Source: Candidatus Woesearchaeota archaeon (GTDB lineage Archaea > Nanobdellota > Nanobdellia > Woesearchaeales > WJKL01). From it: 64,000 nucleotides of DNA. The stretch lies in the NCBI GenBank assembly GCA_014729675.1, contig WJJM01000039.1, positions 1,479-65,478 on the forward strand. Reading direction: 5' to 3'. A program made the position numbers and the translations under genes. This document shows, one piece after another, positions 8,318 to 57,278 of the stretch. Numbering within the stretch: position 1 is the stretch's first letter; every line of letters begins with the position of its first letter. Under the pieces are notes generated by a model. The model made no database searches. It was given only the letters and a program-made list of their open reading frames with translations, and was not told the origin of the DNA.

Positions 8318-8352
8318 AAAACTTTAAAAACTAATTCTTAATAACAAAACTT

Positions 8353-10595: not shown

Positions 10596-11390
10596 ATGAG
10601 GGGGTTAACTATAGATCTAGAGGACTGGTTCCAGGTATATAATTTCAGCAGGATAATAAAACAGGAAGACTGGGGCAAGCAGAGAGAGAGGGTCATAAGG
10701 AACACTGACAGGCTGCTGGATGTTCTTGATGAATACGATACTAAAGCTACATTCTTTGTCCTTGGATGGATAGCTGAAAAATATCCTTTTCTTGTGAATG
10801 AGATCGCGACAAGAGGCCATGAGATAGGATGTCATGGTTACAGCCATAAGCCTGTATTTCTTATGAGCAAAGAAGAGTTTGAGCATGATCTTGAAAGATC
10901 TGTAAAAGCAATAAAAAAAGCATGCGGAGCAAGGCCAAAAGGATACAGGGCTCCAAGTTTTTCTATAACAAAAAAGACATTGTGGGCATTGGATGTCCTG
11001 AAGGAAAATGGATTTGAGTATGATTCTTCTATGATGCCCACTGACAAACATCCTGATTATGGGATAAAAGGAATTCCACGGAAACCATTTATGATAAAAG
11101 GCATAAAAGAGATTCCTTTGACAACAGTACATGGACTGCCTGTAGGTGGAGGATATTTCAGGGCATACCCTTATATCTTGACAAGGTATCTGATGAAAAA
11201 AGACAAGAATTCTATATTTTATATCCACCCATGGGAGTTTGATCCAAAGATTCCAAGATACAATCTTCCTTTGTTGAAAAGGTTCAGGCATTATGTTGGA
11301 CTGAAAAAAACGAGAAAGAAGTTCAGGAAACTATTGAGGGATTTTAGATTTGATAAGCTGGATAATATCATCAAAAAGGACTTCTCTTGA
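10596..11390 (+). CDS. Polysaccharide deacetylase (NodB-homology), exosortase/PEP-CTERM-locus-type subfamily-like
   Basis: N-terminal LTIDLEDWFQV motif and TFFVLGWIAEKYP...GHEIGCHGYSH NodB core. ORF track starts at TTG 10584; ATG at 10596 preferred. Confidence 0.65.
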   Translation: MRGLTIDLEDWFQVYNFSRIIKQEDWGKQRERVIRNTDRLLDVLDEYDTKATFFVLGWIAEKYPFLVNEIATRGHEIGCHGYSHKPVFLMSKEEFEHDLERSVKAIKKACGARPKGYRAPSFSITKKTLWALDVLKENGFEYDSSMMPTDKHPDYGIKGIPRKPFMIKGIKEIPLTTVHGLPVGGGYFRAYPYILTRYLMKKDKNSIFYIHPWEFDPKIPRYNLPLLKRFRHYVGLKKTRKKFRKLLRDFRFDKLDNIIKKDFS

Positions 11391-13053
11391 AATATCTTGT
11401 ATGCAAAAGTTTTTCTGACTTTTTAGACAAAGGTTTGCCTAAGAATTCTTCATATATCTGTTTTATCATAGGATTTTCATGAGATTTTCTTAAAGGCAAT
11501 CTTTTGTCTTCTTCATAGATTGCTTCTATTCTTTTCTTTATCTTTTCTTTTTCATAAGGCAAAGGCTGACCTCCTCCACTTATACAGCCTCCAGGGCATG
11601 CCATGATCTCTATGAAATCAAATTTATCTTTCTCTTTAAGAAGTTCTCTTGCGTTTTTCAGGCCATTTGCAACTGCAAACCTTATCTTTTTTCCGTCAAG
11701 ATCAACTTTCCCTGTCTTTATACCATCTAACCCTCTTGTCTCTTTAAAATCAACACTTTTAAGCTCTTTTCCTGTTGCCAGTTCATAAGCTGTCCTTAAT
11801 GCTGCTTCCATTACCCCTCCTGTTGCGCCGAATATAGCTGCAGCTCCTGTGGACATGCCAAGCACAGGGTCAAAATCTTCATCAGAAAGATTTTTGAAAT
11901 CAATGTTGAAGTGCTCTATAAGCCTTGCTGTCTCTCTTGTTGTCAGAACATAATCAACTCCTGACTTCAGTTCAGGACGGGTCGACTCAAACTTCTTTGC
12001 TGTACAGGGCATTATGGATACAACTATTATATCCTCCTTAGGAATGTTTGCCTTTTTAGCATAATATGTTTTTATAAGGCTGCCAAGCATCTCGTGAGGA
12101 GATTTGCATGATGACATGTTCTTGTTTTTTATGAGATCATGATAGAAATGTTCCATGAACTTTATCCAGGCAGGGCAGCAGGTTGTTATCATAGGAAATC
12201 CTTTATTTTCTTTTATCCTCTTCAGAAGTTCAGAGCCTTCTTCCATGATCGTAAGGTCAGCTCCGAAGTTTGTGTCAAAAACTTTGTCAAAACCGCATCT
12301 TCTTAATGCAGCAACCATCTTTCCTGTAACTAAAGTTCCAGGAGGAAGATCAAATTCCTCTCCTAATGATGCTCTTATAGATGGAGCAGTCTGGACAACA
12401 ACATGTTTCTTTTTGTCTTTAAGAACCTTCAAAACTTCCTGCAGATGCTCTCTTTCTGAGATGGCTCCTACAGGGCATGCAGCTATACACTGTCCGCATT
12501 TTATGCATGCTACATCATTTAAGTTCTTTTCAGAATAAGGAGTTACGTGTTCATGATGAGCTCTTTGTGCAAAGTCTATAGCCCATGTTGACTGTATCTT
12601 GTCGCATACAGCAACACATCTTCCGCAATTTATGCAAAGATTATCATCTCTTATTACAGAAGCTCCTAAGTCAACCTTATATTTCTTTTTTGGATCAAAT
12701 CTTACTTCTCTAATGCCCAGTTCATGGATCAGTCTGCAAAGATCATGATTCTTGTTTTCTCTGAAGCATTTATCCATATGTTCTGGCATGAGAAGCTCTG
12801 CATTTACTTTTCTTGCCCTTTTTACTTTCTCAGAGTTTGTCTTTATCTCCATACCTTCTTTTGGATATGAACTGCAGGATGTTATCAGTTTTCCATCTTT
12901 TGTCTCAACAATACATAACCTGCATCTTGCTTCTGGCTCAAGGTTTTCCTGATAGCATAATGTAGGGATATTTATTCCGTTATCTTTGCATACTTGAAGA
13001 ATAGTCTTTCCTTCTTCACATTCAATTTTTTTGTTGTTGATCTTTATATTCAT
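11371..13053 (-). CDS. hydA: [FeFe]-hydrogenase catalytic subunit (HydA/HndD-like) with N-terminal 2Fe-2S and 4Fe-4S ferredoxin domains
   Basis: H-cluster motifs L1 TTCCPAW, L2 MPCTAKKFE, L3 EIMACPGGCISGGGQP; CINCGRCVAVC and CIKCGQCIAACP ferredoxin motifs. Confidence 0.85.
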   Translation of the reverse strand: MNIKINNKKIECEEGKTILQVCKDNGINIPTLCYQENLEPEARCRLCIVETKDGKLITSCSSYPKEGMEIKTNSEKVKRARKVNAELLMPEHMDKCFRENKNHDLCRLIHELGIREVRFDPKKKYKVDLGASVIRDDNLCINCGRCVAVCDKIQSTWAIDFAQRAHHEHVTPYSEKNLNDVACIKCGQCIAACPVGAISEREHLQEVLKVLKDKKKHVVVQTAPSIRASLGEEFDLPPGTLVTGKMVAALRRCGFDKVFDTNFGADLTIMEEGSELLKRIKENKGFPMITTCCPAWIKFMEHFYHDLIKNKNMSSCKSPHEMLGSLIKTYYAKKANIPKEDIIVVSIMPCTAKKFESTRPELKSGVDYVLTTRETARLIEHFNIDFKNLSDEDFDPVLGMSTGAAAIFGATGGVMEAALRTAYELATGKELKSVDFKETRGLDGIKTGKVDLDGKKIRFAVANGLKNARELLKEKDKFDFIEIMACPGGCISGGGQPLPYEKEKIKKRIEAIYEEDKRLPLRKSHENPMIKQIYEEFLGKPLSKKSEKLLHTRYFKRSPF

Positions 13054-14192
13054 CTTGCTGTCCTTTTTCTTGTCTTCTTCTCTTTAACCCTTTCTTCAAA
13101 CTCACTTCTGAAATATTTTAGAGCATTGAGAAGGTGGTTTGTTGAGGTCTGGCCAAGGCCGCAGAAGGATGTCTCCTTTATGACTTCTGCAAGCTCTTTT
13201 AGAGTGTCAAGATCTTTCATGTCTGCATTTTTCATAGATATGTTTTCAAGTATGTTCAGGATACGATATGTGCCTTCTCTGCAGGGAGTGCATTTTCCGC
13301 AGGATTCAAACTCATAAAATTTGGCTATGTTTGTAACTAAATCTACTATCGATTGTTTTTCATCTACTGCTATTATAGTGCAGGAGCCAAGCATGCATTC
13401 TTTTCCGCAAATAGCATCTGGGTGAAGAGGGATGTCACAATGAGGGATACACCCTCCAAAGCATCCAAAGAACACTGCTTTTATAGGATTTTTTGGTCTT
13501 CCAAGCTTAATCAGATCACATAAAGGAGTTCCTAAAGGAAGTTCATATACTCCTGGTCTTGTAACATTTCCGGACAATGAATATAATCTTAAGTTCTTGT
13601 TCCAATCATCATAGAGCATAGCCAGAGGAACATTTGCTAAAGTTTCAACATTATTGATCACTGTTGGCTTGCTATATAATCCTCTTACTGTTGGAAAAGG
13701 AGGTTTTGTTCTTGCCTGTCCTCTTTTGCCCTCTATTGATTCCAGGATCGCGGTTTCATCTCCGCATATATATGCTCCTGCTCCGATAACTATCTCAATA
13801 GGTGTTTCTGATCCTGTCCTGTTTTTTATCTTAGTTATTGCTTTTTTTAGTTTTGATTCTAAATAGTCATATTCTCCTCTTAAGTAGATGAATGCTTTTT
13901 TTGCTTTGATTGCATAGGCTGCTATAAGGATGCCTTCTATAAGTGCTTCTGGATTTTTTTCTATTATAAATTTGTCTTTGAAAGTTCCTGGCTCTCCTTC
14001 GTCAGCATTGCAGATGAGATATTTTTCAGAATCCTTTTCTTTTGAGACCATCTCCCATTTTGACCCTGTTGGAAAGTTAGCCCCTCCTCTTCCTGAAAGG
14101 CCTTTTTTCTTTATCAGGTCTATAGTCGCTTTTGAACCTAGTTTTATTGCTTTTCTATATGCTCTTTGAAGAGGTTTTCTTAGTATCTGCAT
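13050..14192 (-). CDS. hydB: NuoF-like NAD(P)H-binding flavoprotein subunit of hydrogenase (HydB/HndC-like)
   Basis: GRGGANFPTGSKW FMN/NADH motif; ESCGKCTPCREG 4Fe-4S motif; 4-nt overlap with hydA. Confidence 0.8.
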   Translation of the reverse strand: MQILRKPLQRAYRKAIKLGSKATIDLIKKKGLSGRGGANFPTGSKWEMVSKEKDSEKYLICNADEGEPGTFKDKFIIEKNPEALIEGILIAAYAIKAKKAFIYLRGEYDYLESKLKKAITKIKNRTGSETPIEIVIGAGAYICGDETAILESIEGKRGQARTKPPFPTVRGLYSKPTVINNVETLANVPLAMLYDDWNKNLRLYSLSGNVTRPGVYELPLGTPLCDLIKLGRPKNPIKAVFFGCFGGCIPHCDIPLHPDAICGKECMLGSCTIIAVDEKQSIVDLVTNIAKFYEFESCGKCTPCREGTYRILNILENISMKNADMKDLDTLKELAEVIKETSFCGLGQTSTNHLLNALKYFRSEFEERVKEKKTRKRTAR

Positions 14193-14596
14193 TATTTTAG
14201 CCCCTTTATTATTTCGTCAATCTTCTCTTTTGTCAAAGAAGTATACACTTCTTTGCCTATCTTCATGGCAGGAGCTTTATCACAGCAGCCGATGCATGAA
14301 CAGATATACAATGAAAATCTTTTGTCTTCTGTTGTCTGGCCTGATTTGATTTTAAGTTTTTTTTCAAGATATTTTATTATGTTTAATGAACCATTAAGAT
14401 AGCAGGAAGGAGAGTTGCATATCTCTATTATATGTTTTCCCTGAGGTTTAGTGTGGAGCTGTGAATAAAATGTTGCTGCAGCATATATCTTTGCTACAGG
14501 AATATTCATCTTTTTGCTGAGCTTTTTCATAGAATCTTCTGAGATATAGCCTTTTTTTCCCTGTATCTGTTTTAATTCTTTTAATAATAAAGACAT
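14192..14596 (-). CDS. hydC: NuoE-like thioredoxin-fold 2Fe-2S subunit (HydC/HndA-like)
   Basis: CNSPSCYLNGS...CSCIGCCDKAP cysteine pattern; internal ATG 14596 preceded by AGAGGTG SD preferred over the 218-aa ORF whose first 84 aa are low-complexity. Confidence 0.6.
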   Translation of the reverse strand: MSLLLKELKQIQGKKGYISEDSMKKLSKKMNIPVAKIYAAATFYSQLHTKPQGKHIIEICNSPSCYLNGSLNIIKYLEKKLKIKSGQTTEDKRFSLYICSCIGCCDKAPAMKIGKEVYTSLTKEKIDEIIKGLK

Positions 14597-14647
14597 TTTA
14601 CACCTCTTATTCTGATGGAGTGTTCTTTTGTTTAAATAGTTTTTTAT

Positions 14648-15274
14648 TTGATAATTGTAATGATGAATCATGATTTTAGAAAAATATTTAAACTGAACAA
14701 GTATCTTTTTATTATGTATGAATTTGAGAATGTAAAGAAGTTTTTTGACATTTCTGATTATAATTATAGTTCCATGTATAAATATATAGAATTGTTTATC
14801 TTTTCTGCTGCAGGATTTTTTATACCTTTTTTTATAGGGCATCCTCAAATAGTTGTGGGGATAATAGTGAACAGTTTTCTGATAAGTTCTTCATTAAAGT
14901 TTAAAGATTATAAGATATTGCCTGTAGTTGTGATGCCTTCATTGGGGGCTTTGTCAAGAGGGTTGTTGTTTGGGCCATATACTCCTTTTTTATTTTATAT
15001 GATTCCTTTTATTTGGATTGGAAATTATCTTTTAGTCTATGCTTTTAGGCAGTTTAAGCTTAAGAAGAAGCTTAATTATTGGCTTAGTCTTGGGATGGGT
15101 ATCGTTTTCAAGGCAGGATTCTTGTTTTTAACTGCTTACATATTCTATATTTTTGGAGTTGTTCCAGCTGTATTTTTGACTGCGATGGGAGTTATGCAGG
15201 CTATAACTGCTTTTGGAGGAGGAGTTGCTGCTTTTGGTTATGAGAAAATCAGCAGATGGGTCAATAGAAGTTAG
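14648..15274 (+). CDS. Integral membrane protein, hypothetical
   Basis: Multiple hydrophobic helices; no motif recognised. Confidence 0.35.
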   Translation: MIIVMMNHDFRKIFKLNKYLFIMYEFENVKKFFDISDYNYSSMYKYIELFIFSAAGFFIPFFIGHPQIVVGIIVNSFLISSSLKFKDYKILPVVVMPSLGALSRGLLFGPYTPFLFYMIPFIWIGNYLLVYAFRQFKLKKKLNYWLSLGMGIVFKAGFLFLTAYIFYIFGVVPAVFLTAMGVMQAITAFGGGVAAFGYEKISRWVNRS

Positions 15275-17489: not shown

Positions 17490-17960
17490 TTATTTGTATT
17501 CTTTTCTTATCCTGTATTTTTTCGGGTTAAAAGTCTGGATCATGGATATCATCTTTTCTATGCAGGACATGAAGAAGACATCTTCCCTGGATTTTTCTGA
17601 GAAGCTATTTCCGTCAAACACAAGCCCGTTCCAAAGATAATTGATATATAGTGCAGGATTTTCAAGCTTTTCCAGCCTGCTTCTGATGTACGAATCATCC
17701 TTTAATGCTGCAGTTTCAAGGAATTCCAGATCTACATAGAAAGGAATGGATCTTGCTTTTCTGAAAATCTTTTCCATCTTAGAAACTTGCTTTTTATTGT
17801 TTTCATCTTCTATAAGGAGCATATCTATATCACTTTCTTCATGCATTGTGTTCTTTGCAACAGATCCGTGGAGTATTATATAATCAAAACATCCTGATCC
17901 ATATGCAAGAGATGCAAGTTCAACAGCATAGTCCATCTGTTTCATAGAAGATATTGTCAA
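17490..17960 (-). CDS. Minimal nucleotidyltransferase (Pol-beta superfamily) domain protein
   Basis: ILHGSVAKNTMHEESDIDMLLIED = GS..(D/E).D.D nucleotidyltransferase motif. Confidence 0.5.
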   Translation of the reverse strand: MTISSMKQMDYAVELASLAYGSGCFDYIILHGSVAKNTMHEESDIDMLLIEDENNKKQVSKMEKIFRKARSIPFYVDLEFLETAALKDDSYIRSRLEKLENPALYINYLWNGLVFDGNSFSEKSREDVFFMSCIEKMISMIQTFNPKKYRIRKEYK

Positions 17961-38286: not shown

Positions 38287-39018
38287 TTATTGCCACTGTT
38301 TTAAGGCATCTTCTTCTACAAAATGCAGATTTCCAGGTATTATTAAACATTGCGGTGTATGCTTTAGTTCTATGTCTTTTATTTGTTCTGCTGTCCTTGC
38401 TATTATCTCTTTTTTTTCTGAGCCTAATGCTGAACATGCAATACATAATTGATCTTCTTTTAATCCTAATTTTAGAAGTCTTTGTATAGCTTCTTTAATT
38501 GTCAGGAATCTGTTGTTTATAGGATTCAGGTCTAATAAAAACAATGTATGCAGGCCTATGCTCTGATTTTTCTTAAAAAAATCATAGAAGCTGTTAGCTT
38601 TTTCATCAAAAGGGATAGAAACAGTCCTTCCGAACTTGTAGAGCTCTAATCCCATGATTCCTATAGCATTTAATATGGATGTGTTGTTTATTACTTTAGT
38701 TTCTATCTTTAGTTCTTTTGCTCTTAGCATAAGATCTGTATGTGTTGTCGCTCCAAATGGGTCTCCTATCACAAGGAAAGCTGTATCTTGTGTTTTTGCA
38801 TCTTTAAGTATGGTCGATTCTGCCTGTTTTTCAACCATGTCCCTGTCTGCCAATATTATATCTTTACCGTAAAGTTTTTCCAGAGATTCTTTAGAACATT
38901 GAAGTTTTGAAGTGTAGGATTCTAGATAGATCTTATTGCAGGATTTGATCGCTTCTAATCCTTTTAATGTAATGTCTTTTTCATTGTTTAATCCTAGTCC
39001 TATGAAATATAATGTCAT
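38287..39018 (-). CDS. dphB: Diphthine synthase (tetrapyrrole-methylase fold)
   Basis: MTLYFIGLGL...DITLKGLEAIKSCNKIYLE N-terminus and overall 243-aa size typical of Dph5/DphB. Confidence 0.8.
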   Translation of the reverse strand: MTLYFIGLGLNNEKDITLKGLEAIKSCNKIYLESYTSKLQCSKESLEKLYGKDIILADRDMVEKQAESTILKDAKTQDTAFLVIGDPFGATTHTDLMLRAKELKIETKVINNTSILNAIGIMGLELYKFGRTVSIPFDEKANSFYDFFKKNQSIGLHTLFLLDLNPINNRFLTIKEAIQRLLKLGLKEDQLCIACSALGSEKKEIIARTAEQIKDIELKHTPQCLIIPGNLHFVEEDALKQWQ

Positions 39019-41421: not shown

Positions 41422-41958
41422 TTATCTCTTAAAGACTATCTTTTTCTGGCCAGAATATAACCCCATCTTTGTCATGGCTTCAAATTGGTCCTTGCTTACA
41501 ATTAAAGGGGAGACTATGAAATCGTATTTTTCTCTTATCTCTCCGCAGATCTCTTTTATCTTACCATTATCTATATTTTCTCCAATCAGCATGAGATTGG
41601 CTCTTTGGTTGGACTCTTCTCCATGCAGTACAACTGCTTTTATCTCATATATGTTCCTTATCTTATCTATGAATAATTGCAGGACTTGCTTGTCTTTCTT
41701 TAGCATCTCATAGAGAAATCCTGTCCTTTCTGTATGCCTGAACTTATAGAATTTAGAGTTTTTTCTGACTATAGGATCTATGATCTCAAAATCCATGAGC
41801 TTTACAAGAATGCGGTATGTTGAAGCTGGTGAGACCTTTGCTGCCTTGGAGATCTCTCTCAGATACATGCCTTCTTCAGAATTATCATTAGCTAATATCT
41901 GCAGGATCGACAAAATCTTCTGATCAAACAATTGTTGGAGAAGCTCTATATCCTTCAT
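41422..41958 (-). CDS. Winged-helix transcriptional regulator (TrmB/MarR-like) with C-terminal domain of unknown function
   Basis: LREISKAAKVSPASTYRILVKLMDFEII HTH. Confidence 0.45.
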   Translation of the reverse strand: MKDIELLQQLFDQKILSILQILANDNSEEGMYLREISKAAKVSPASTYRILVKLMDFEIIDPIVRKNSKFYKFRHTERTGFLYEMLKKDKQVLQLFIDKIRNIYEIKAVVLHGEESNQRANLMLIGENIDNGKIKEICGEIREKYDFIVSPLIVSKDQFEAMTKMGLYSGQKKIVFKR

Positions 41959-44876: not shown

Positions 44877-46934
44877 ATGTGCGGGATAATAGGAGTATTT
44901 AATCGCAAGGATAGTGTCAAGTTAGTTGAATCTGGATTGAAAGTTATATCTTATAGAGGAAAGGATCATACAGGAGGGTCTAAAGTTAATGATGGATGCA
45001 TAGGCCATTGCCTTCATTCTGTTGTTGATTCAGTGAAACAGCCGATAGATGGCAGATTTACAGTTAACTGCGAAGTTTATAATTGGAAGGAGTTGGATGA
45101 TAAATATTCTTTAGAAGCTAAGAATGATGCAGATATGCTTTTCAATCTTCTTGAAAAAAAAGGCGTATCTGAAGAAGTTCTTGATGAGCTTGATGGAGTT
45201 TATGCTTTTGCCTATGTTAAAGATAATAAATTATATATTGCAAGAGATATAATAGGGATAAAGCCAGTTTGGTATAGTCATTCTGAAGGATTTGCATTTG
45301 CTTCTGAGAAGAAGGCTTTGGAGTCTATTGGTTATATAGATATTGTTGAGCTTAATCCAAGAAAGATTATAGAGTATGATATTGTATCTGATAGATTGTC
45401 TTTTGTTGAAAGAGATTTTTTTTCTATAAAGCCTGAGCTGAAGGAGAGTAAAGAAGGGATTATAAATAGGCTTAGCAGGCTGCTTGATGATGCTGTATCT
45501 AAGAGGATCCCTTCAAGGAAATTTGGATTGTTATTTTCCGGAGGAGTAGATAGTACATTTTTGGCTATGATGCTGAAGAATAAAGGATATGATTTTACAT
45601 GCTATACAGCTGTATTGGATCATCCAGATTTTAGGGTTCCTGAAGATTTGATTTATTCTAAGAAGATTGCAGATTCTTTAGGTCTTGATCTGAAAGTTGT
45701 GAAGATCAAGCTTGATGATATTGAAGAGTATATTAAAAAAATTGTTCCCCTTATCGAGAATTCAAATGTTGTTAAGGTTGGAGTGGCTTTAACTTTTTTT
45801 AAGGCATGTGAGGAAGCTTCTAAAGATGGATGTAAGGTAATCTTTTCTGGGTTAGGTTCAGAGGAGATATTTGCAGGATATGAAAGGCACAAGAATTCAA
45901 GAAACATAAACGAAGAATGCGTTTCTGGATTATTGAAGATGTATGAAAGAGATCTTTATAGGGATGATGTTATAACGATGTTCAACAGTCTTGAATTAAG
46001 GGTCCCTTTTTTAGATAAAAGATTAGTTGAATATTCTTTGAAAATTCCTGAGAAGTTTAAGCTGACTTCTTCAAACAATAAGATGATATTTCGTGATGTT
46101 GCTCTTGATATGGGGCTTTCAGAAGAGTTTGCTTTAAGAGGAAAGAAAGCTGCGCAGTATGGGAGTAATTTTCATAAGTCATTGGAGAAACTGGCTAAGA
46201 AAAATAAGTTTAAGTATATTTCTGAATATTTGCGCCAGTTTTATCCAGGGCATAATGTCAAGTTAGGAGCATTAGTCAGCAGTGGAAAGGATTCAATATA
46301 TGCTATGCATGTCATGATGAGGCAGAACTATAAGATAAACTGTATGATAAGCCTTTTTAGCTCTAATCCTGATTCTTATATGTTCCATACGCCTGCTGTT
46401 GATCTTGTCAATCTGCAGGCTGAGTCTATAGGCCTGCCTTTATTGCAGTTTAAGACTGAAGGGAAGAAAGAAGATGAGCTTGAAGATCTTAAGAAAGCAC
46501 TTCTAAAGGCTAAGGAAGAATATTGTATTGAAGGGATTGTTACAGGAGCTTTGTTTTCCAACTATCAAAGAGAGAGGATAGAAAAGGTTGCAGATTCTTT
46601 GGGATTGAAGATATTTGCTCCTTTGTGGCATATCAACCAGGAGACAGAGATGAGAGAGATAATTGATAATGGTTTTAAGTTTATAATCGTAAAAGTTATG
46701 GCTGACGGGCTGGATAAAAGCTGGTTGGGAAGAGTTATTACAGATGAAGATGTTGATAGATTGGTTGAGTTGGATTCAAAAATGGGTTTTAATGTCGCTG
46801 GAGAGGGTGGCGAGTACGAGACACTTATGATAGATGGGCCAATATTTAATAAAAAGATAAAGATTGTTGAAAGTTCTACTGAAGAAGAATCTTCTATTGT
46901 TGCTGAGCTGAAGATTGAGAGGGCTGAATTATAA
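44877..46934 (+). CDS. Three-domain fusion: class-II glutamine amidotransferase + AsnB-type PP-loop synthetase + Dph6-type diphthine-ammonia ligase PP-loop domain
   Basis: MCGIIGVF (Ntn Cys1); FSGGVDSTFLA (first PP-loop); VSSGKDSIYAMHV...EGIVTGALFSNYQRERIEKVADSLGLKIFAPLW (MJ0570/Dph6-like second PP-loop). Confidence 0.55.
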   Translation: MCGIIGVFNRKDSVKLVESGLKVISYRGKDHTGGSKVNDGCIGHCLHSVVDSVKQPIDGRFTVNCEVYNWKELDDKYSLEAKNDADMLFNLLEKKGVSEEVLDELDGVYAFAYVKDNKLYIARDIIGIKPVWYSHSEGFAFASEKKALESIGYIDIVELNPRKIIEYDIVSDRLSFVERDFFSIKPELKESKEGIINRLSRLLDDAVSKRIPSRKFGLLFSGGVDSTFLAMMLKNKGYDFTCYTAVLDHPDFRVPEDLIYSKKIADSLGLDLKVVKIKLDDIEEYIKKIVPLIENSNVVKVGVALTFFKACEEASKDGCKVIFSGLGSEEIFAGYERHKNSRNINEECVSGLLKMYERDLYRDDVITMFNSLELRVPFLDKRLVEYSLKIPEKFKLTSSNNKMIFRDVALDMGLSEEFALRGKKAAQYGSNFHKSLEKLAKKNKFKYISEYLRQFYPGHNVKLGALVSSGKDSIYAMHVMMRQNYKINCMISLFSSNPDSYMFHTPAVDLVNLQAESIGLPLLQFKTEGKKEDELEDLKKALLKAKEEYCIEGIVTGALFSNYQRERIEKVADSLGLKIFAPLWHINQETEMREIIDNGFKFIIVKVMADGLDKSWLGRVITDEDVDRLVELDSKMGFNVAGEGGEYETLMIDGPIFNKKIKIVESSTEEESSIVAELKIERAEL

Positions 46935-46938: not shown

Positions 46939-47044
46939 CGCTCCCTCAGGGATTTGAACCCTGGTTTTAGCCTTATTGCAAATGAGCATCTTTAGAATGC
47001 AGTTACCGCAAGGCTACGTACTATCCAGGCTATACTAAGGGAGC
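46939..47044 (-). tRNA. Intron-containing tRNA (about 32-nt intron in anticodon loop); anticodon most likely GCG (Arg), GAT (Ile) not excluded
   Basis: Acceptor GCTCCCT/AGGGAGC, D-arm GTAT..GTAC with A20, anticodon stem TAGCC/GGCTA enclosing 39 nt, T-arm CAGGG-TTCAAAT-CCCTG, discriminator G. Confidence 0.55.
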
Positions 47045-47071: not shown

Positions 47072-47794
47072 TTAAATGTTGCTTGTCTTTTGTTCTTTAA
47101 GGATTATCAGATGATCATAAAGATTGTCCAGCTGCCTGTTGAATGGGACATTCATGAAAGCATCCACGACAGCAGGGTGGAACTCTATGCCTTTTTTCTC
47201 TTTTATTATCGCTACAGCCCTTTCATGCTCCATCCTTTGGTTTTCTTTTCTTCTGTATAATCTTTTGGATCTCATGGCATCATATGCGTCTGCAACATGA
47301 AGTATCCTTGCTCCAAGAGGTATTTCATCTTCTGAGAGCTTATCAGGATATCCTGAGCCGTTATGGTGTTCGTGATGATGCAATATTATACTATAGACCT
47401 CTTTATCAAAATACATTGAAAGTTCAGGATAATTAATCTTGAGATCATTTCTAAGATTTTCTCCTGAGCAAATAGGATGGCTTTTTATGATATTCTTGTG
47501 AAATCCTGAAAGAACATCTTTCTTTTTGTCCCTCATCACATCGGGCCATATCATCTTCATATAATCATGATGGCTGGCTGCAAGCTGAAGCTTTTTTATG
47601 TATTCTTCTGTCAATTCAGAATCATAGGATATATCTAATTCTTTCATCTCATAAGCAAGGTCTAAGGAGATTGCAGCTGTACGTTTCATATGCCTTATAT
47701 CTCTTTGCTGGAATTCGGAGAGAGGCCTATGGTGATTAAACTGGCTGTACACTTTTTTGGTTATTTCATTAAGTTTCATCCTAGATGATGCCAA
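47072..47794 (-). CDS. HD-GYP domain phosphohydrolase
   Basis: ASHHDYMK (HD), HHHEHHNGSGYPD (HHExxDGxGYP), HVADAYDAMRSKRLYR motifs. Confidence 0.7.
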   Translation of the reverse strand: MASSRMKLNEITKKVYSQFNHHRPLSEFQQRDIRHMKRTAAISLDLAYEMKELDISYDSELTEEYIKKLQLAASHHDYMKMIWPDVMRDKKKDVLSGFHKNIIKSHPICSGENLRNDLKINYPELSMYFDKEVYSIILHHHEHHNGSGYPDKLSEDEIPLGARILHVADAYDAMRSKRLYRRKENQRMEHERAVAIIKEKKGIEFHPAVVDAFMNVPFNRQLDNLYDHLIILKEQKTSNI

Positions 47795-47920
47795 TCTTTA
47801 CAAAAAAATACTAGATCTCTGATAAAGTGAAGTCTCTAGTTCCCTAAAAAACCCCTTTACAAGAATATATATGTTTTTAGGATATAAAAAGATTTCGAAA
47901 ACCTATTTAAATCAGCAATA

Positions 47921-49411
47921 TTAACGGATTATTGTTTGCTGAGGTTCAGGACCTGTGGAAATCATCGCTACTTTTCCGCCTGTGAAAGATTCAAGGTATT
48001 CTATGGATTCTTTTAGGCTTGGAGGCAGATTGCCATAATTTGTCTCGCCTGTTATATTCTGATAGCCTGGGTATGTGCTGAATTTGGGAGTTATCCTTCT
48101 CAAAAAGTTTTCATCGTCATCAAATGTTTTTACTATATTGTCTCCATCATTATAGCCATCGCAAAGCCTGAATTCTTCTGCTTCTCCAAGAACATCTGCT
48201 TTTGTCAATATAAGATTAGGGCCATTTATACCCACTGCATATTTTAGTGCTACTAGATCTGTCCAACCGGTCCTTCTCGGTCTTTTTGTAGTTGCTCCAT
48301 ATTCTTCCCCCATCATCCTGATACCTACACCCTGTGTAAAAGGGCAACTTGAATCAATCAGCCCAATCACTTTTTCTGGATTTGATCTCATGTAATCTAC
48401 TACTTCTTTCTCTTTTTTATCCAGCAATACCTTATTTTTCTCTTTTTGTGCTTTTCTTATCTTAGATAGATCTATGTCCATTCCAAGATACTCTTTTGCC
48501 TCAAAGAATATATCACAGTCAAGATCATTTGCGCAATGTATCTCAGAAATATCTTCTCCAAGCTCTGAAGGGAAAGGTCCTCCTCCAACCCGAGTCATAT
48601 AAGGAAACTTTGCTATACCGTATGTTTCGACTATAGATCCAGGCAGACCTACTCCTGAAGCTGTTCCGTTTGCAGAAGGGCTTGAAGATGTAACATAAGG
48701 ATATGTCCCAAACTCTATATCGAGCAATAATCCCTGGGCTCCTTCCAGTGATATCTTTTTTCCTTTATTTACAAATTTATGTATTTCAGCGATAGTGTTT
48801 CTTACAAAAGGATATATCCTTTCTGCATAAGGTTCTATGTAGCTTATAATATCATCTATATTTATATCAGGATAGTATCCTTTTGCTTTCTCAAGACGCT
48901 TGGCCATCATATCTCTGTTGAAAAGGTCTCTTACTCTTACTCCATGCCTTAGTATCTTGTCTCCATAAGCAGGGCCTATCCCTCTTCCTGTAGAGCCTAT
49001 CCCTCCTTTTTTTTGGGATTTGTTTTTCTTTTGATCTTTTTCAATCTGATGAGGGAGGATAACATTAGCTCTGTCACTTATCATAAGATTATTGTAGGGA
49101 ATGTTTTCTTTGTCAAGTTCGTCCATTTCTTCTGTCAAAACTTTCAGGTCTAGGACCATGCCGTTTCCAAGAATATTCGTTTTGCCTTCCTTATCATAGA
49201 TTATGCCTGCAGGGAGTAAATGAAATATACGCTTTTTTCCGTTTATAACAACAGTGTGTCCTGCATTGTTTCCCCCTGTACCTCTTGCTATAACATCTGC
49301 CCAATTTGCTGCAAAATAATCTGAGAATTTTCCTTTTCCAGTGTCTCCCCACTGGTTGCATACTATAGATATTATCTGCTTGTCCTTTACCATATCCTCT
49401 AATCTTGACAT
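47921..49411 (-). CDS. purA: Adenylosuccinate synthetase
   Basis: QWGDTGKGKFSDY P-loop, GTGGNNAGHTV, GTTKRPRRTGW motifs. Confidence 0.85.
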   Translation of the reverse strand: MSRLEDMVKDKQIISIVCNQWGDTGKGKFSDYFAANWADVIARGTGGNNAGHTVVINGKKRIFHLLPAGIIYDKEGKTNILGNGMVLDLKVLTEEMDELDKENIPYNNLMISDRANVILPHQIEKDQKKNKSQKKGGIGSTGRGIGPAYGDKILRHGVRVRDLFNRDMMAKRLEKAKGYYPDINIDDIISYIEPYAERIYPFVRNTIAEIHKFVNKGKKISLEGAQGLLLDIEFGTYPYVTSSSPSANGTASGVGLPGSIVETYGIAKFPYMTRVGGGPFPSELGEDISEIHCANDLDCDIFFEAKEYLGMDIDLSKIRKAQKEKNKVLLDKKEKEVVDYMRSNPEKVIGLIDSSCPFTQGVGIRMMGEEYGATTKRPRRTGWTDLVALKYAVGINGPNLILTKADVLGEAEEFRLCDGYNDGDNIVKTFDDDENFLRRITPKFSTYPGYQNITGETNYGNLPPSLKESIEYLESFTGGKVAMISTGPEPQQTIIR

Positions 49412-49412
49412 C

Positions 49413-50924
49413 TTATTTTACCCCCTCATAGTTTGGCGCCTCTTTTATCATCTTTAGGTCATGCGGATGACTTTCCTTCAATCCAGCAGGGCTTATCCTG
49501 TCAAATCTAACATTTTCATGAAGCGCTTTTATATTTTCAGCCCCTGCATAGCCCATCCCTGATCTAAGGCCTCCAAGATACTGGAATATGATATTTCTTA
49601 CAGAGCCTTTATAGGGAACTCCCCCTTCTATGCCCTCTGGCACCAGCTTGTCCTTTGAAGATTTTTCTTGTTTGTATCTTTCTTTTGAGCTTTCTGATCC
49701 TTTCATGGCTTTTAGAGAGCCCATGCCTATATATTCTTTGTACAGGTTACCTTTATCATCAGTCTTTATATCTCCTGGTGATTCTTCTGTTCCTGCAAAA
49801 AGGCTTCCAGTCATTATAGAGGATGCTCCTGCTGCAAGTGCTTTTGTTATATCTCCTGGATATCTTATCCCACCATCTGCTATCACAGGCCTCCCATATT
49901 TTTCTCCTGCTTTTGCAGTTTCATGAATTGCGCTGACCTGGGCCCTTCCTGCGCCTGAGACTATCCTTGTCGTGCAGATGGATCCAGGGCCTACACCTAC
50001 TTTTACTGCATCTGCTCCTGCCTTGAAAAGGTATTCAGCCCCTTCGTAGGTTGCAGCATTGCCTGCTATAATATCAAATTCATGACTGCTGAACTGTTTT
50101 TTTAGTTCTAAGACAGTGTCTCTTACATTTTTTGAATGGCCGTGTGCGGTTCCTACAAGAAGAGCATCGCACTTCTTTTTAAGAAGCCTTTCAGCTCTTT
50201 CAAAATCATGGACACCTACATTTGCACCCACTACCAACTGGCCTTTTTTGTCCCTGTTGTATAAAGGAGTAATGCCTTCGATTATAGATTTTACATCTGT
50301 ATAACAGAACAGGCCTTTTGGAGTATTTTCTTCTGTTATTATCAGTTTTGCGATCCTGTTGGTCTTCATAAAATCATAAGCTTCCTGAACTGTAAAATCT
50401 TTTTCAGAGGTTACAGGATTGCTGACCATGTAATCTTTGACAATCTCTGAACCATGTCCAAACTGGTATTTATCTTTGGTAAGAAGTCCTGTCACCTTGT
50501 TTTCCTTGTCCACTACAACCAGGGAAGAGAATTTATTTCCGTAATGCTCTAACTTTTTAGCAGCATCTTCTAATGTATCAGATTCAAAGACAGTTACAGG
50601 ATTTTCTATCCTTGCATTGAATGTATATTTTACTTCATCAAGCCAGTCTTCCTGTTCCTCTATGCTGCTTTTCCACAGGAATCCAATGCCTCCTTGTTTT
50701 GCAAGCTCGATAGCCATATCTGCTTCTGTAACAGTACTCATATCTGCGCTTGTTATCGGAGAATTCAATGGGATGTTTGCTGACAGCCTTGTTTCAAGAT
50801 CAACATCTGAAGGCACTACCTCGCTTTTTCCAGGCTTTATAAGAACATCATCGAAAGTCAGGCCTTCAAACTCAAACTTCTTAAAGAAATCATTTAAATA
50901 AACATTAGCCATTTTTCCCACCAT
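49413..50924 (-). CDS. guaB: Inosine-5-prime-monophosphate dehydrogenase with tandem CBS domains
   Basis: Catalytic loop [34 protein letters not shown]; CBS pair in N-terminal half. Confidence 0.85.
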
Positions 50925-50985
50925 TTATATTTCCTTGTGAAATAGATTATATTTATATTTTTGTTTTCTGTATCAGTGACGAAGA

Positions 50986-52557
50986 TTAAACTTTCAAACC
51001 TTTCTGGCCTTTTCTTTTCAATGGGGAAGCTATCTCTACTTTCTGGCCAACCTGTTCTTTTATCTTGATGGCTGTCTTTTTTCCTACTATCTGTGAGAGC
51101 TTTAGCGGGTCTGATCTCTTGACATCTCTTATGGTCTTTATCCTGTTGCTGAAGAGTTTTCTTGCCCTTACCCTGCCTATGCCTTTAAGCTTTAATAAAG
51201 GAAGCAGTTCTTCTTTTGCTCCGTGCTTGAGCCTAAGCCTTAGCTTTGTGAGTTCTTTTAGGATGTCTTTCTTTTTTATCATCCTTGCAAATTCTGTTGA
51301 GCAGTAGAAAAGCCAGTCAGCAAGGTTAAGCTTTATCCTTGTCTCTCCAGGCCTTATCGAGTATTTTTCAAGGATGGCCTCTTCATCTATCTCGTTTATC
51401 CAGTCTTTGAAGAACAATGCTGTCTTTACAGAGTTAAGGAACTCCACATATTCTTCGTCATACATAGAAGGTTCTTCCTGGAGCATAGAATCAGAATATT
51501 TTACAAGAGCTTCTTCTATATCCTCGTATTCTTTTTTCCTTACTCTTAATAGAGGCCTCATCTCTAAGGTTGAGGCGATCATCTGCAGGAAGGAAAGCTC
51601 TGAGATCTCTTTTTTTTCAGATGCTTTTAATGCCTGGATAATATGGTTGGCTGTGTAAGGATCTATATATAGTTCTGCAACCCTTTTCCCTATTGGCGTA
51701 GCTTTGTATTCATGGTTGAACATGTCTGCTGCTGACTGGAACTCATTTTCCTCTTCAGTCGAGGTTATGAATCTATAGTCTTTCAACAGTTTCAGCATCT
51801 TTTCTATGATTGAAGTTAGTTTAGTCATGTCCTTGTACTGGAATGCCCAGAATGTTTTTGAGAAAAAATCTATTATCTGTTTCTTGTCCTTTACAAATCC
51901 TGCTGCTATCAGTGAAAGAAGATAGGTTCTTAAGACAGGCTCGACTGCAAGTTTGGAGTATACTTCTTCCGGCTCTCCTTTTACATATCTTTCATAAATC
52001 TCATCTTTTATAGGCTCAGTTGAAGCTATGGCTATAGCCTGGCCTGTTATGTCATATTTCGGGCGGCCAGCGCGGCCAGCCATCTGAAGATATTCCAATG
52101 TAGGGATCCAATCAAGACCTCTGTGTCCGAATCTTCTTAGGTCTTTCATTATTGCTCTATAGGCCGGCAAGTCGAGGCCAAAACTAAGTGTCGGCGTGGC
52201 ACAGATAGTTTTTATCAACCCTTTCCTGAAGCTGTCTTCTATAATCTCTTTCTGCTTATGGACAAGGCCTGCATGATGAAAAGCTATTCCTTTTTTTAGG
52301 CAGAAAGCAAGACGTTTGCACTGCTTTGTAGGTGTTGATAATGTGTTTAATGCCTTTTCTGAAAGCTCTTCATATTCTTTTGTTTCTTTTTCTGACAATG
52401 ATCTTTGTTTTCCTATTGCTTTTGCTATATCTTCTGCTGTCTTCTCTGCTGAGCGTTTTGTGTTTGCAAATACAATAGCCTGTTTTAGCTTGTTTATCGT
52501 GTCAAGAACTAAGTCTATTGTCTGGTCTCCTGTCTCTGAAGCTATTGTCTCATGCAT
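50986..52557 (-). pseudogene. Hel308/Ski2-like DNA helicase lacking the N-terminal RecA1 (Walker A/DEAD) domain: truncated gene or split gene
   Basis: Begins at RecA2 domain (TPTLSFGLDLPAYRAIM...QMAGRAGRPKYD motif VI), then winged-helix, ratchet and HhH (LKGIGRVRARKL). Upstream in-frame sequence hits a stop after about 40 non-helicase codons; region upstream is the 47-bp tandem array. Confidence 0.5.
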
Positions 52558-52706
52558 ATCTGTTGAGAAAGAGAGAAGGTATTTAAAATTGTTTATTATT
52601 GGCTGTTTGATTAGTATGTTGATATCTAACCTGCTTTTGGTTATTTTTAAGTCAGGAAATTTTTTGTATAGAATAATTCAATCTTAGTCTCTAAGTCAGG
52701 AAAACC

Positions 52707-52847
52707 TGCCCTGCGATCAGGATTTTCAATCCTAATCTTTAGGTCAACATAGTTGCCCTGCGATCAGGATTTTCAATCCTAATCTTTAGGTCAACATAGT
52801 TGCCCTGCGATCAGGATTTTCAATCCTAATCTTTAGGTCAACATAGT
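52707..52847 (+). repeat. Perfect tandem array, 3 x 47 bp (tgccctgcgatcaggattttcaatcctaatctttaggtcaacatagt), representing the 5-prime module of the dispersed element family
   Basis: Seen directly; unit contains taggtcaaca.agttgccctgcgat shared with copy A 5-prime end; a partial fourth unit precedes. Confidence 0.8.
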
Positions 52848-52964
52848 ACATGTGATAACATTTTAAAATAAAATTCAATATTTTTCTTCTAAGTCAGCAT
52901 AGCTACATTGCAATTATTATTACCAATTAAAGTTTTCATATGTAATAATCTAAAAATCCCTATC

Positions 52965-53142
52965 GATAACGCTCGCTTTGCTCGCTAACCTTACCACTGA
53001 GACAGAGGCGTTAAGTTCTGGTTTAGATTAAAAGGACTGAGCACTCGACTTAAATCGGAGAGAGACTGTGCACGAGCAGGTTTCCAGACGAGTGAAACGA
53101 GTCTGACTTTTCACCTACGAGTGCCACAAATGGGATTGAAAG
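52965..53142 (+). repeat. Copy C core of dispersed GC-rich structured element family
   Basis: gataacgctcgctttgctcg...gagacagaggcgttaagttctgg...gagactgtgcacga...hairpin CAGAC-11nt-GTCTG...gagtgccacaaatgggattgaaag. Confidence 0.6.
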
Positions 53143-53269
53143 TTCTAATTCTGCTTTTTATCAAAAAATAAAATATGCCAAAAATAATTTACTATGGGCA
53201 GGATTTCAATAATAGATTAAAGCCTGACTTAGAAATAGAATTAAAAACTTTTAAAATCAAGATAAAAAA

Positions 53270-55522: not shown

Positions 55523-55545
55523 TTTAAAATTAAAAAAATAAAAAA

Positions 55546-56652
55546 TTATTCCTCCTGAACAATGTCTATTATTTCAGGAGCTTTGTTTATGTCTTCTACG
55601 ATTACAGTCACTTCGAGAGTTGTTGTTGATTCTTCATCTTCAGCTTTGATAGTCACTGTATATTCTCCGTGGTCTGTGTAGTCGGTTTCCCAGGTTCCAT
55701 CGTTCCCTACCGGGTCTGAGATAGTTACTGTGACATCGTCTTCATTAAGGTCTGTCACTTCAGGCTCAAGCACCAGAGTGTCTCCTTCCTGTATCTCTAT
55801 GAACTCTTCAACACCTTCTATTTTTGGAGCTACATTTTTTTTGTTGATAGTTACTTTTACTGTCTGTTCTGATTCAAGCTCTTCGTCAGTGGCTTTTATG
55901 ATTATATCATACTCTCCATTGTCAGTATAGCCTGTCTCCCAGATGCCGTCGTTCCCTACCGGGTCTGAGATAGTTACAGTAACTTCATCGCCGTTTGGAT
56001 CTGCGATAACAGGTTCAAGCACAAGTGTTTCTCCTTCATCAAGTGAAACGCTCTTGATGTTTTCTATCTCCGGAGCTACATTTACCTTCTCAACAACAAG
56101 CAATACATCTTTTGATGTTTCTGCTTTACCATCTGTAGCTGTAACTGTTACAAGATACTCCCCAGCATCTCCGTAATCTGTCTGCCATCTTCCGTCCTCA
56201 TCCAATGGTGATGTGAAAGTATATGTGATATCGTCTTCGTCAAGATCTTTTGCTTTAGGCTTTAGGCTTACTTTTTCGCCTTCTTTTACATCGATAGTTA
56301 TATCGGCTTTAAGGTCTTCTGCTACCTCTTCAACAACTTCTTCTGCTACCTCTTCAACAACTTCTTCTGCAGTCTCTTCAACAACTTCTTCTGTTTCTTC
56401 AACAACTTCTTCTGTCTCTTCTACTTCTTCAGATGTTTCTTTTTCAAGTTTATCTGTAGCTTCTTCGGTTTCTTGTTCCAGCTCTTCTATCAGCTCATCA
56501 AGCTCGTCTTCTGACTCATCTTCGTCTTTTTCAGTCAGCAGGGAATATGGCTTATCTTCCTCGACATTGCCTGCTATGTAATCTGAAACAGCGCAGCCTG
56601 TCATCAAGACAGCTATCATAAGAATTCCTGCAATCATTAGTTTATTTTTCAT
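55546..56652 (-). CDS. Lipoprotein-signal surface protein with acidic E/V/T low-complexity linker and three Ig-like domains
   Basis: MKNKLMIAGILMIAVLMTGC lipobox-like; EEVVEETEEVVEE repeats (DNA-level tandem repeats about 56330-56420); VN(V/K)APEI...D.N.D.VT.T...P...DG.WETDY.D.GEY domain x3. Confidence 0.55.
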   Translation of the reverse strand: MKNKLMIAGILMIAVLMTGCAVSDYIAGNVEEDKPYSLLTEKDEDESEDELDELIEELEQETEEATDKLEKETSEEVEETEEVVEETEEVVEETAEEVVEEVAEEVVEEVAEDLKADITIDVKEGEKVSLKPKAKDLDEDDITYTFTSPLDEDGRWQTDYGDAGEYLVTVTATDGKAETSKDVLLVVEKVNVAPEIENIKSVSLDEGETLVLEPVIADPNGDEVTVTISDPVGNDGIWETGYTDNGEYDIIIKATDEELESEQTVKVTINKKNVAPKIEGVEEFIEIQEGDTLVLEPEVTDLNEDDVTVTISDPVGNDGTWETDYTDHGEYTVTIKAEDEESTTTLEVTVIVEDINKAPEIIDIVQEE

Positions 56653-56798
56653 TTAAAAATCCCCCTCCGTAATGTATTTTTAATTGTTTAGTGTCAATAA
56701 ATAGAACTCATATAAATAATTTACTATTTTAAAATAGCAAAAATATTGTCACAATGTCATGACGAATAAACAGGATATCTGTTTTTAGAGTGATAGAA

Positions 56799-57124: not shown

Positions 57125-57211
57125 CGCCCCGAGCAAGACTCGAACTTGCGACCTTGCGGTTTCAGCTTTTGGCTTAACAGCCGCACGCTCTACCTGCTAA
57201 GCTATCGGGGC
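57125..57211 (-). tRNA. tRNA-Asn (anticodon GTT) with about 14-nt intron after position 37
   Basis: Acceptor GCCCCGA/TCGGGGC, D-arm GCTT-AGCAGGTA-GAGC, anticodon stem TGCGG/CCGCA, loop CTGTTA(A), T-arm GCAAG-TTCGAGT-CTTGC, discriminator G. Confidence 0.6.
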
Positions 57212-57278
57212 ATCTAGCAGAAAGGAATTATGATGATTTATAAAAGTTTCTTTTTAAGGGCTGGAAAAACAAACCTAA

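Follow-up and report, generated by a model that had tools for sequence, protein, structure and literature searches.

A stand-alone HD-GYP protein encoded beside purA and guaB in a Woesearchaeota archaeon

Introduction

Signalling by cyclic di-GMP (c-di-GMP) is regarded as a bacterial trait, and a gene encoding an HD-GYP protein in an archaeal genome raises two questions: whether the gene belongs to the archaeon at all, and which nucleotide its product may act on. Such a gene is located downstream of purA and guaB in the stretch of DNA analysed here (hereafter the window), which contains 64,000 nucleotides (nt) of contig WJJM01000039.1 of Candidatus Woesearchaeota archaeon. An HD-GYP protein in an archaeon is not unprecedented: 70 archaeal HD-GYP open reading frames (ORFs), including RCIX2274 of Methanocella arvoryzae, have been catalogued, and those derived from metagenome-assembled genomes (MAGs) are considered possible contamination (Galperin and Chou). 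The explanation favoured here, which as a whole is moderately probable, is a genuine Woesearchaeota gene of bacterial origin, encoding a catalytically competent binuclear HD-GYP phosphodiesterase whose substrate is a guanine cyclic dinucleotide.

The HD-GYP protein

The mechanically predicted ORF (47072..47794, reverse strand) shows a TTG start at 47794 and encodes 240 amino acids (aa). Translation most probably starts at the ATG at 47779, which gives a product of 235 aa and is supported by the alignment of this product with the orthologue P0002 from residue 1. The product is identical to GenBank MBD3249240.1, annotated as 'HD domain-containing protein' of Candidatus Woesearchaeota archaeon in a 65.8-kb contig. 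The protein matches the Pfam family HD_5, which is the HD-GYP model, with 82.3 bits (cutoff 27.2, E 4.5e-23) over profile positions 27-169 of 170, and the Pfam family HD with an E-value of 2.1e-13, well outside what chance would produce. These are the only matches of the Pfam scan, which shows neither a REC (PF00072) nor a sensor domain, and only the HD-GYP part of the NCBIfam profile for NosR-type REC-HD-GYP regulators is matched (91 bits vs a cutoff of 400). A phmmer search against the PDB sequences retrieves HD-GYP proteins only: PA4781 (4R8Z, 9e-15), PmGH (4MCW, 4e-12), V-cGAP3 (5Z7C, 3e-10) and DvhD (9RBZ).

The AlphaFold2 model built from a 120-sequence alignment (predicted local distance difference test, pLDDT, 87.7; predicted template modelling (TM) score, pTM, 0.86) shows a single all-helical domain with three C-terminal helices beyond the generic HD core, as is typical of the extended HD-GYP domain of about 166 aa: H155-169, H185-194 and H202-210. 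All of its best 15 Foldseek matches in the PDB are HD-GYP structures. PgpH (4S1B) is found at E 0.012 with a TM-score of 0.45, vs 1e-8 for the HD-GYP structures, and generic HD and phosphodiesterase folds rank lower than PgpH. Unlike the PgpH-type phosphodiesterases of cyclic di-AMP (c-di-AMP), which contain a seven-transmembrane region and an HD domain without GYP, the window protein has no membrane domain. The HD-GYP signature and the stand-alone architecture proposed in the preliminary description are borne out by these results; the motifs that it quoted translate exactly, and the clustering with generic HD hydrolases that it named as a possible objection is not observed.

Active-site and substrate-binding residues

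The window protein was aligned with 16 homologues (alignment A1) and with 119 homologues (120 sequences), and in both alignments every metal- or substrate-binding position listed by Galperin and Chou is conserved: H30, H71-D72, K75, H101, H135-H136-E137, G143-Y144-P145, D164, D167 and R173-L-Y175-R176 (Table 1). H30, H71-D72, H101, H135-H136 and D164 do not vary in A1 and correspond to the ligand positions of 4R8Z and 4MCW, and H135, H136, E137, G141, G143, Y144 and P145 are invariant across the 120 sequences. The motif RxY[K/R], to which a role in guanine binding and c-di-GMP specificity is attributed (Galperin and Chou), is RLYR in the window protein and is found as RxYR in 114/120 relatives. 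All metal ligands of the binuclear site are kept, and the degenerate site that the preliminary description considered as a further objection is not found. The window gene almost certainly encodes an intact HD-GYP domain.

These residues also bear on whether the protein could be a catalytically silent nucleotide receptor or a protein-interaction module, like DvhD or Bd1817. In favour of such a role, the structural matches include DvhD (9RBZ) and Bd1817 (3TM8), the gene has evolved more rapidly than the genes around it, and a syntenic homologue in another Woesearchaeota locus (L090) shows GYL and RxYD. However, all metal ligands and the tyrosine of GYP are kept throughout the five members of the archaeal clade to which the protein belongs, down to 42% identity, which is the pattern expected of an enzyme, and the silent module is considered very improbable.

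The acidic residue equivalent to E185 of PmGH, which is typical of the trinuclear subclass, is absent from the window protein and Arg26 is found in its place. This position, four residues before His30, is occupied by R in all members of the archaeal clade and by Y, F or W in the bacterial relatives. Arg26 places the protein in the binuclear subclass, like PA4781, and mainly pGpG is predicted as its product. The loop between H101 and H135 contains 33-36 residues in the clade, 39 in the bacterial sequences P0005-P0008 and 23 in most others, so that in the clade it is 10-13 residues longer than in most.

Descent and archaeal context of the gene

A search of 1.84 billion cluster representatives retrieves 79,472 HD-GYP relatives, and just four of them show an E-value below 1e-30, which indicates that the specific clade is rare. 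Orthologues are located in L001 (CAYXHN010000040.1, 67% identity to the window protein), L002 (Logan, 49%), L004 (JGI Ga0209636, 44%) and L094 (JGI Ga0334965, 42%), and in these four loci a gene encoding a truncated helicase is located just upstream of the HD-GYP gene. Collinearity between L001 and the window extends over about 14 kb (positions 47072-60894 of the window) and takes in nearly the whole 10.5-kb contig of L001. The genes shared by both encode a GT4 protein, two CDP-alcohol transferases, a 424-aa unknown protein, two PKD proteins, the helicase, the HD-GYP protein and a tRNA with an intron; the neighbours are 77-90% identical, vs 67% for the HD-GYP protein. The contig of L001 is labelled 'uncultured Methanosarcinales archaeon', a label that is probably wrong, given the 77-90% identity of its genes to those of the window, the shared synteny and a helicase family named Woesearchaeota or Nanoarchaeota.

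Helicase identity to L001, L002 and L004 is 89, 65 and 62%, alongside 67, 49 and 44% for the HD-GYP protein; both fall together, which points to co-divergence and vertical descent. The ratio of non-synonymous to synonymous substitution rates (dN/dS) of the HD-GYP gene vs L001 is 0.26 at a dS of 0.91, and four neighbouring genes show ratios of 0.07-0.16. The HD-GYP gene is under purifying selection, somewhat relaxed. In a neighbour-joining (NJ) tree, the four proteins covered by the clade bootstrap (window, L001, L002 and L004) are monophyletic in 187/200 replicates, and the archaeal clade is placed within a set of bacterial REC-HD-GYP proteins. Its closest outgroups, bacterial response regulators of the REC-HD-GYP type, show 38-45% identity over the domain, and the contigs of the nearest bacterial relatives contain either Pup-proteasome and alanine racemase genes or HisKA, CheR and CheB genes. 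A single origin for all the Woesearchaeota HD_5 genes found at this locus was considered and finds no support in these data: the proteins of L090 and L091 share just 30-31% identity with the window protein and group with its clade in 2/200 bootstraps.

The simplest history would be an old transfer from bacteria, followed by loss of the receiver domain and by vertical inheritance in a small clade. The suggestion in the preliminary description that the gene was horizontally acquired stands as regards its bacterial ancestry, given the position of the clade among bacterial REC-HD-GYP proteins, and has to be amended as regards its present state: the transfer is old, and synteny, promoter and purifying selection indicate present-day vertical inheritance within a Woesearchaeota sub-lineage.

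Bacterial contamination, mis-binning or a chimeric assembly would also account for the closest relatives outside the clade being bacterial, and it is the explanation held possible by Galperin and Chou for the HD-GYP ORFs of archaeal MAGs. Against this, the gene lies inside the 64-kb sequence between purA and a tRNA-Arg(GCG) gene, which is located directly downstream on the same strand and contains an archaeal-type intron. This tRNA was missed by ARAGORN in bacterial mode, and a matching intron-containing tRNA is also found downstream of the orthologue in L001. Archaeal markers above their NCBIfam cutoffs are located on both sides of the HD-GYP gene: the diphthine synthase equivalog dph5 (38287..39018, 251 bits vs a cutoff of 114), an archaeal RecJ and an archaeal uS15, the latter of archaeal/eukaryotic type. 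The window also encodes an ATP-dependent DNA ligase, XPD/Rad3, a FlaI-like ATPase with pilin-like genes and a fusion of AsnB and diphthamide synthase. The GC content of the HD-GYP gene is 0.37, equal to that of its flanks, four independent assemblies (NCBI, Logan, JGI) contain the same gene in the same position, and its BRE/TATA-type promoter is conserved. Contamination is therefore effectively refuted and has hardly any probability left; there is very little doubt that the gene is an authentic gene of an archaeal chromosome, and the archaeal context assumed in the preliminary description is confirmed by dph5, RecJ, uS15, the intron-containing tRNA and the helicase orthologues. The census of Galperin and Chou, the most thorough one of HD-GYP domains, left the authenticity of archaeal HD-GYP genes open, and the window locus provides a clean positive case, which defines a small Woesearchaeota HD-GYP clade.

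The helicase is of the Hel308 type and lacks the RecA1 domain. Its hundreds of orthologues of about 518 aa are named Woesearchaeota or Nanoarchaeota, which assigns the lineage to the DPANN Woesearchaeota, and in L001, L002, L004, L090, L091 and L094 it precedes the HD-GYP gene directly or at a short distance. The L001 gene spans 7938-9500, and the truncated form is also seen in L089-L095. The missing N-terminal half is not encoded in the 712-nt gap upstream. In Woesearchaeota and Nanoarchaeota this truncated Hel308 may represent a gene split throughout the lineage or a non-ATPase protein derived from a helicase.

Linkage to purine-interconversion genes

The genes purA and guaB are located directly upstream of the HD-GYP gene on the same strand, as the preliminary description had stated. 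From L001, L002 and L004, where the helicase gene is directly upstream, this adjacency was at first taken as incidental, an interpretation overturned by the sampling of seven further helicase orthologue loci (L089-L095). The window and L090 show the order helicase-guaB-purA-HD_5, L091 shows helicase-HD_5-guaA-guaB-purA and L094 shows helicase-HD_5-guaB-purA. L093 contains guaB-purA without an HD_5 gene, L092 and L095 contain neither gua/pur genes nor HD_5, and the contig of L089 ends right after purA. In L002, a fragment after the HD-GYP gene resembles the N-terminus of IMP dehydrogenase. Of the six informative Woesearchaeota loci, four (window, L090, L091 and L094) and probably a fifth (L002) have an HD-GYP-family gene adjoining guaA/guaB/purA, in three gene orders. 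The segment downstream of the truncated Hel308 gene, bounded by a tRNA gene, is variable, and HD-GYP and purine-interconversion genes co-occur in it repeatedly, which is suggestive of a functional link between them.

The HD_5 proteins of L090 and L091 show 30-31% identity to the window protein and no robust grouping with its clade: the former reads GYL in place of GYP and RxYD in place of RxY[K/R], and the latter contains an 11-residue insertion in the HHE..GYP loop together with a canonical DPYTQGHS motif. L094 contains in addition a gene encoding a plain HD protein after purA. As a separate observation, the guaB genes that follow the helicase are 23-35% identical between the Woesearchaeota locus groups, and the helicases are 62-67% identical; the pairs L090/L094 and L089/L091 show guaB identities of 67% and 71%, respectively. 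The purA products at the helicase loci are 27-33% identical and range from 443 to 580 aa. Divergent guaB and purA genes at one locus suggest xenologous replacement or the existence of several paralogous types.

The linkage raises the alternative that the protein is a housekeeping or salvage enzyme of the nucleotide pool, not a signalling enzyme, which supplies or regulates the GMP/AMP branch point, on which DPANN archaea with reduced biosynthesis rely. Its substrates would be scavenged or RNA-derived guanine nucleotides: pGpG or short oligoribonucleotides, 2',3'- or 3',5'-cyclic GMP, or a regulator of GuaB and PurA similar to (p)ppGpp. The presence of HD-GYP-family genes beside guaA/guaB/purA in the window, L090, L091 and L094, and probably L002, agrees with this, as do the lack of a sensor domain and the known hydrolysis of pGpG to GMP by some HD-GYP proteins. 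On the other hand, the HD-GYP gene has its own conserved promoter and would share no operon with them, L001 shows no gua/pur genes at the locus, L093 shows guaB-purA without an HD-GYP gene, none of the residues defining c-di-GMP recognition has been lost, and no HD-GYP protein is known to act on mononucleotides (Galperin and Chou). A salvage enzyme is a minor possibility, unlikely but with more in its favour than any other alternative in which the substrate or the activity differs.

Upstream region

The distance between the stop codon of purA and the start of the HD-GYP gene is 141 nt. This region contains a block with 86.8% nucleotide identity to L001 over 106 nt, vs 74% for the coding sequence, and a core, TT.CG.AA..TTT.TATAT...AAAACAT, which is invariant in all five clade loci, whatever the gene upstream. 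The core, with the element cgaaatcTTTTTATAT, reads as a putative archaeal B recognition element (BRE) and TATA box, about 105 nt before the ATG. The presence of its own BRE/TATA-like element implies that the HD-GYP gene would be an independent transcription unit, with a predicted transcription start near 47858 and a leader of about 80 nt that contains a conserved AGAGAC block. A riboswitch or structured leader in the upstream block of about 110 nt was considered and rejected: RNAalifold gives only -0.96 kcal/mol, with no consensus RNA structure, and Rfam in E-value mode retrieves only chance snoRNA matches in this block, which is read as a promoter or operator.

Substrate and proposed function

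A guanine-containing cyclic dinucleotide is, by a narrow margin, the probable class of substrate, and the most likely function would be the constitutive, metal-dependent hydrolysis of c-di-GMP or 3'3'-cGAMP. Two Fe2+/Mn2+ ions would be held by H30, H71/D72, H101, H135/H136 and D164, and the substrate by Tyr144 of the GYP loop together with R173/Y175/R176. A metal-activated water would then cut a 3',5'-phosphodiester bond of the cyclic dinucleotide, which is expected to turn c-di-GMP into pGpG; 3'3'-cGAMP might also be hydrolysed. With no sensor domain, activity would be set by transcription from the conserved promoter and would be unregulated at the protein level. The substrate could come from a cyclase encoded elsewhere in the genome or from bacterial neighbours, and the repeated guaA/guaB/purA linkage suggests that the products may feed the guanylate pool or that the enzyme may tune it.

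Several observations weigh against this explanation. According to reviews, which agree here with the preliminary description, c-di-GMP has never been detected in an archaeon. The 54 ORFs of the window show no GGDEF, EAL, PilZ, MshEN, DisA_N, CARF, Cas10 or CD-NTase domains. L001, the closest relative, has no guaB/purA beside its HD-GYP gene. The KPG motif is K-K-D in the window protein, with K86 kept and PG changed to K-D, and the N-terminal motif DxYTxxHS (D-x-[YF]-T-x-x-H-S) is missing in the clade, where it is replaced by Q-R-D-I-R-H-M (RDIRHMKR in the window protein). Finally, evolution is faster in the gene than in its neighbours (dN/dS 0.26 vs 0.07-0.16), and the NJ phylogeny is shallow and cannot name the donor. 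KPG is equally variable in the bacterial relatives (KQE in 28, KAE in 17 and KPG in 14 of 120), and DxYTxxHS, of which the His alone remains in the clade, is typical of the family and not required for catalysis. More than 300 GGDEF proteins were retrieved from archaeal data by a BLAST survey in the literature, and MAGs of Asgard and DPANN archaea account for many of them.

The preliminary description proposed that the protein could act on an adenine-based archaeal messenger, either c-di-AMP or the cyclic oligoadenylates of type III CRISPR systems, both of which are cyclic nucleotides known in archaea according to reviews. The change of KPG, which contacts the second base, to KKD is compatible with this, as is the distant structural match to the HD domain of the c-di-AMP phosphodiesterase PgpH. 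However, the guanine-binding RxY[K/R] is intact as RLYR, the HD-GYP proteins characterised so far do not cleave c-di-AMP (Galperin and Chou), PgpH matches far more weakly than the HD-GYP structures, and the window contains no DisA_N, CARF or Cas10 domain. The search for cyclase and CARF genes suggested in the preliminary description covered the 64-kb window and found none; the window contains no CRISPR gene either, and a search for GGDEF motifs found one chance GSEEF string, inside DUF763. The proposal finds no positive support and is improbable, more so than a salvage enzyme. A defence link of the HD-GYP protein was rejected, with no PADLOC match, and a viral link was likewise rejected: IMG/VR gives two distant matches, and BFVD gives one partial match (E 5.7e-4, TMq 0.36, 'GGDEF protein (Fragment)'), the others being at E 0.04 or worse.

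As for the role of a putative guanine-specific HD-GYP phosphodiesterase in these organisms, a speculative possibility, rather unlikely as it stands, is that Woesearchaeota keep the gene beside gua/pur genes to handle c-di-GMP, either in an endogenous circuit with a GGDEF cyclase or by degrading c-di-GMP or pGpG of bacterial partners. If true, the first option would be the first archaeal c-di-GMP circuit, and the second would mean harvest of GMP together with quenching of the biofilm signal of the partner. The locus alone does not show that archaea use c-di-GMP. The 235-aa protein is nevertheless a small, concrete target for asking what a cyclic-dinucleotide phosphodiesterase does in an archaeon, and the guaA/guaB/purA linkage provides a testable hypothesis that ties HD-GYP proteins to the supply of guanine nucleotides in genome-reduced symbionts.

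Coordinates and other features of the window

Table 1. Location of the HD-GYP gene, its motifs and its neighbours in the window, and of HD proteins in other Woesearchaeota loci.
Feature	Locus	Coordinates	Strand	Description
HD-GYP coding sequence	Window	47072..47779	-	235 aa, ATG at 47779; Pfam HD_5 4.5e-23; MBD3249240.1
Arg26	Window	47702-47704	-	At the E185 position of PmGH; no third-metal ligand
RDIRHMKR	Window	47681-47704	-	Translated segment holding Arg26 and His30
His30	Window	47690..47692	-	First metal ligand (equivalent to PmGH H189); invariant column in A1
HD motif, His71-Asp72 and Lys75 (HDxxK)	Window	47555..47569	-	HHDYMK at 47555-47572
His101	Window	47477..47479	-	Metal ligand (equivalent to PmGH H250); invariant in A1; aligned to 4MCW
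HHExxxGxGYP loop (HHEHHNGSGYP)	Window	47345..47377	-	His135/His136/Glu137 and Gly143-Tyr144-Pro145; invariant in 120 homologues
DAYDAM...RLYR (DAYDAMRSKRLYR)	Window	47252..47290	-	Asp164 ligand, Asp167 and RxY[K/R] (Arg173/Tyr175/Arg176); from alignments and translation
Conserved upstream region	Window	47780..47908	-	BRE/TATA-like element cgaaatcTTTTTATAT at about 47882-47899; from identity to L001 and clade alignment
tRNA-Arg(GCG)	Window	46939..47044	-	Intron of about 32 nt in the anticodon loop; Rfam tRNA 48.8 bits; 35 nt where the model has 3
purA	Window	47921..49411	-	Adenylosuccinate synthetase, 496 aa; Pfam Adenylsucc_synt 6e-121; NCBIfam
guaB	Window	49413..50924	-	IMP dehydrogenase with CBS pair; Pfam IMPDH 1e-135
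Hel308-type helicase without RecA1	Window	50986..52557	-	Hel308 profiles matched from about position 222 only
HD_5 protein	L090	10011-11132		373 aa; GYL, RxYD
HD_5 protein	L091	6656-7609		317 aa; 11-residue loop insertion
Plain HD protein	L094	12578-13183		201 aa, after purA

The intergenic region upstream of the helicase gene contains a perfect tandem repeat of three 47-bp copies, 100% identical (52707..52847), with the internal hairpin AGGATTttcaATCCT; this repeat is absent from the syntenic gap of L001. A GC-rich patch of about 170 nt (52960..53130), located in an otherwise AT-rich intergenic region, was considered as a non-coding RNA and rejected: folding gives z-scores of -0.6 and -1.6, which are not significant, Rfam shows no match and L001 lacks a conserved counterpart. 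Another tRNA, of 87 nt (57125..57211, reverse strand), shows a full-length Rfam match, whereas ARAGORN could not assign it and reported a 4-base 'gtta' anticodon; a further intron or a long variable arm is probable.

Elsewhere in the window, a cluster on the reverse strand (11371..14848) encodes the large subunit of an [FeFe]-hydrogenase, with a small-subunit domain, and NuoF-like and NuoE-like subunits, and it resembles a hydrogenase module of the bifurcating type, here in a DPANN archaeon. On the forward strand, a 685-aa ORF (44877..46934) encodes a glutamine amidotransferase/asparagine synthase fused to a diphthamide synthase (Dph6-type) domain, and another ORF (8353..10113) encodes a short alanyl-tRNA synthetase of 586 aa (NCBIfam equivalog PRK01584, 920 bits), which is nearer to the N-terminal part of bacterial-type alaS than to the archaeal alanyl-tRNA synthetase model. 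A minimal nucleotidyltransferase (Polbeta/NTP_transf_2; 17490..17960) and a winged helix-turn-helix protein (41422..41958), both on the reverse strand, show weak matches to the PADLOC candidates PDC-M05A and PDC-S09; they are 24 kb apart and do not form an obvious pair.

Comparison with known HD-GYP proteins

PA4781 of Pseudomonas aeruginosa (4R8Z), a binuclear phosphodiesterase of c-di-GMP and pGpG, is both the best sequence match of the window protein, with the E-value given above, and its best structural match (Foldseek E 2.6e-8, TM 0.66-0.73). Both proteins show the metal ligands, the GYP loop and RxYR, and both lack an acidic third-metal ligand of the E185 type. PA4781 differs in being bacterial, in having an N-terminal REC domain and in its identity of about 25% to the window protein, which in turn shows an H101-H135 loop 10 residues longer, three inserted residues behind RxYR and, at the E185 position, Arg in place of an aromatic residue. 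PmGH of Persephonella marina (4MCW/4MDZ), which is trinuclear, has the same fold, and its positions H189, H221, D222, H250, H276, H277, D305, Y285 and R314 are matched in the window protein; it differs in E185 and the third iron, in an N-terminal GAF-like domain and in taking c-di-GMP through to GMP.

V-cGAP3 of Vibrio cholerae (5Z7C), which is specific for 3'3'-cGAMP, aligns in the HHE..GYP and DA..RxYR regions and shows that the HD-GYP fold can accept a mixed G/A dinucleotide. It differs in containing a tandem of a pseudo-HD-GYP and an HD-GYP domain in 463 aa, it is a weaker structural match (E 3.6e-4), and the published change from RxxK to RxxQ/N, which shifts HD-GYP proteins towards cGAMP, is absent from the window protein. 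The closest non-archaeal sequences are the RpfG-type REC-HD-GYP proteins P0005-P0008 (Poribacteria-like) and P0115. P0005-P0008 share with the window clade an enlarged H101-H135 loop; the RpfG-type relatives differ in their REC domain, in the canonical D-x-Y-T-x-x-H-S and in their bacterial two-component or chemotaxis contexts. Among the archaeal proteins, RCIX2274 is a large REC-PAS-PocR-GGDEF-HD-GYP fusion, unlike the stand-alone window protein, and the other catalogued ORFs are flagged as possible contamination, whereas the window gene is backed by synteny, promoter, composition and selection.

On these residues and domains, the window protein is a binuclear member of the HD-GYP family (Pfam HD_5, COG2206-type) and neither an RpfG-type regulator, as it has no REC domain, nor a trinuclear PmGH-type enzyme, as it has no E185. 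Its peculiarities with respect to the known HD-GYP proteins are modest: Arg at the E185 position, the loss of DxYTxxHS, a longer loop and its stand-alone architecture.

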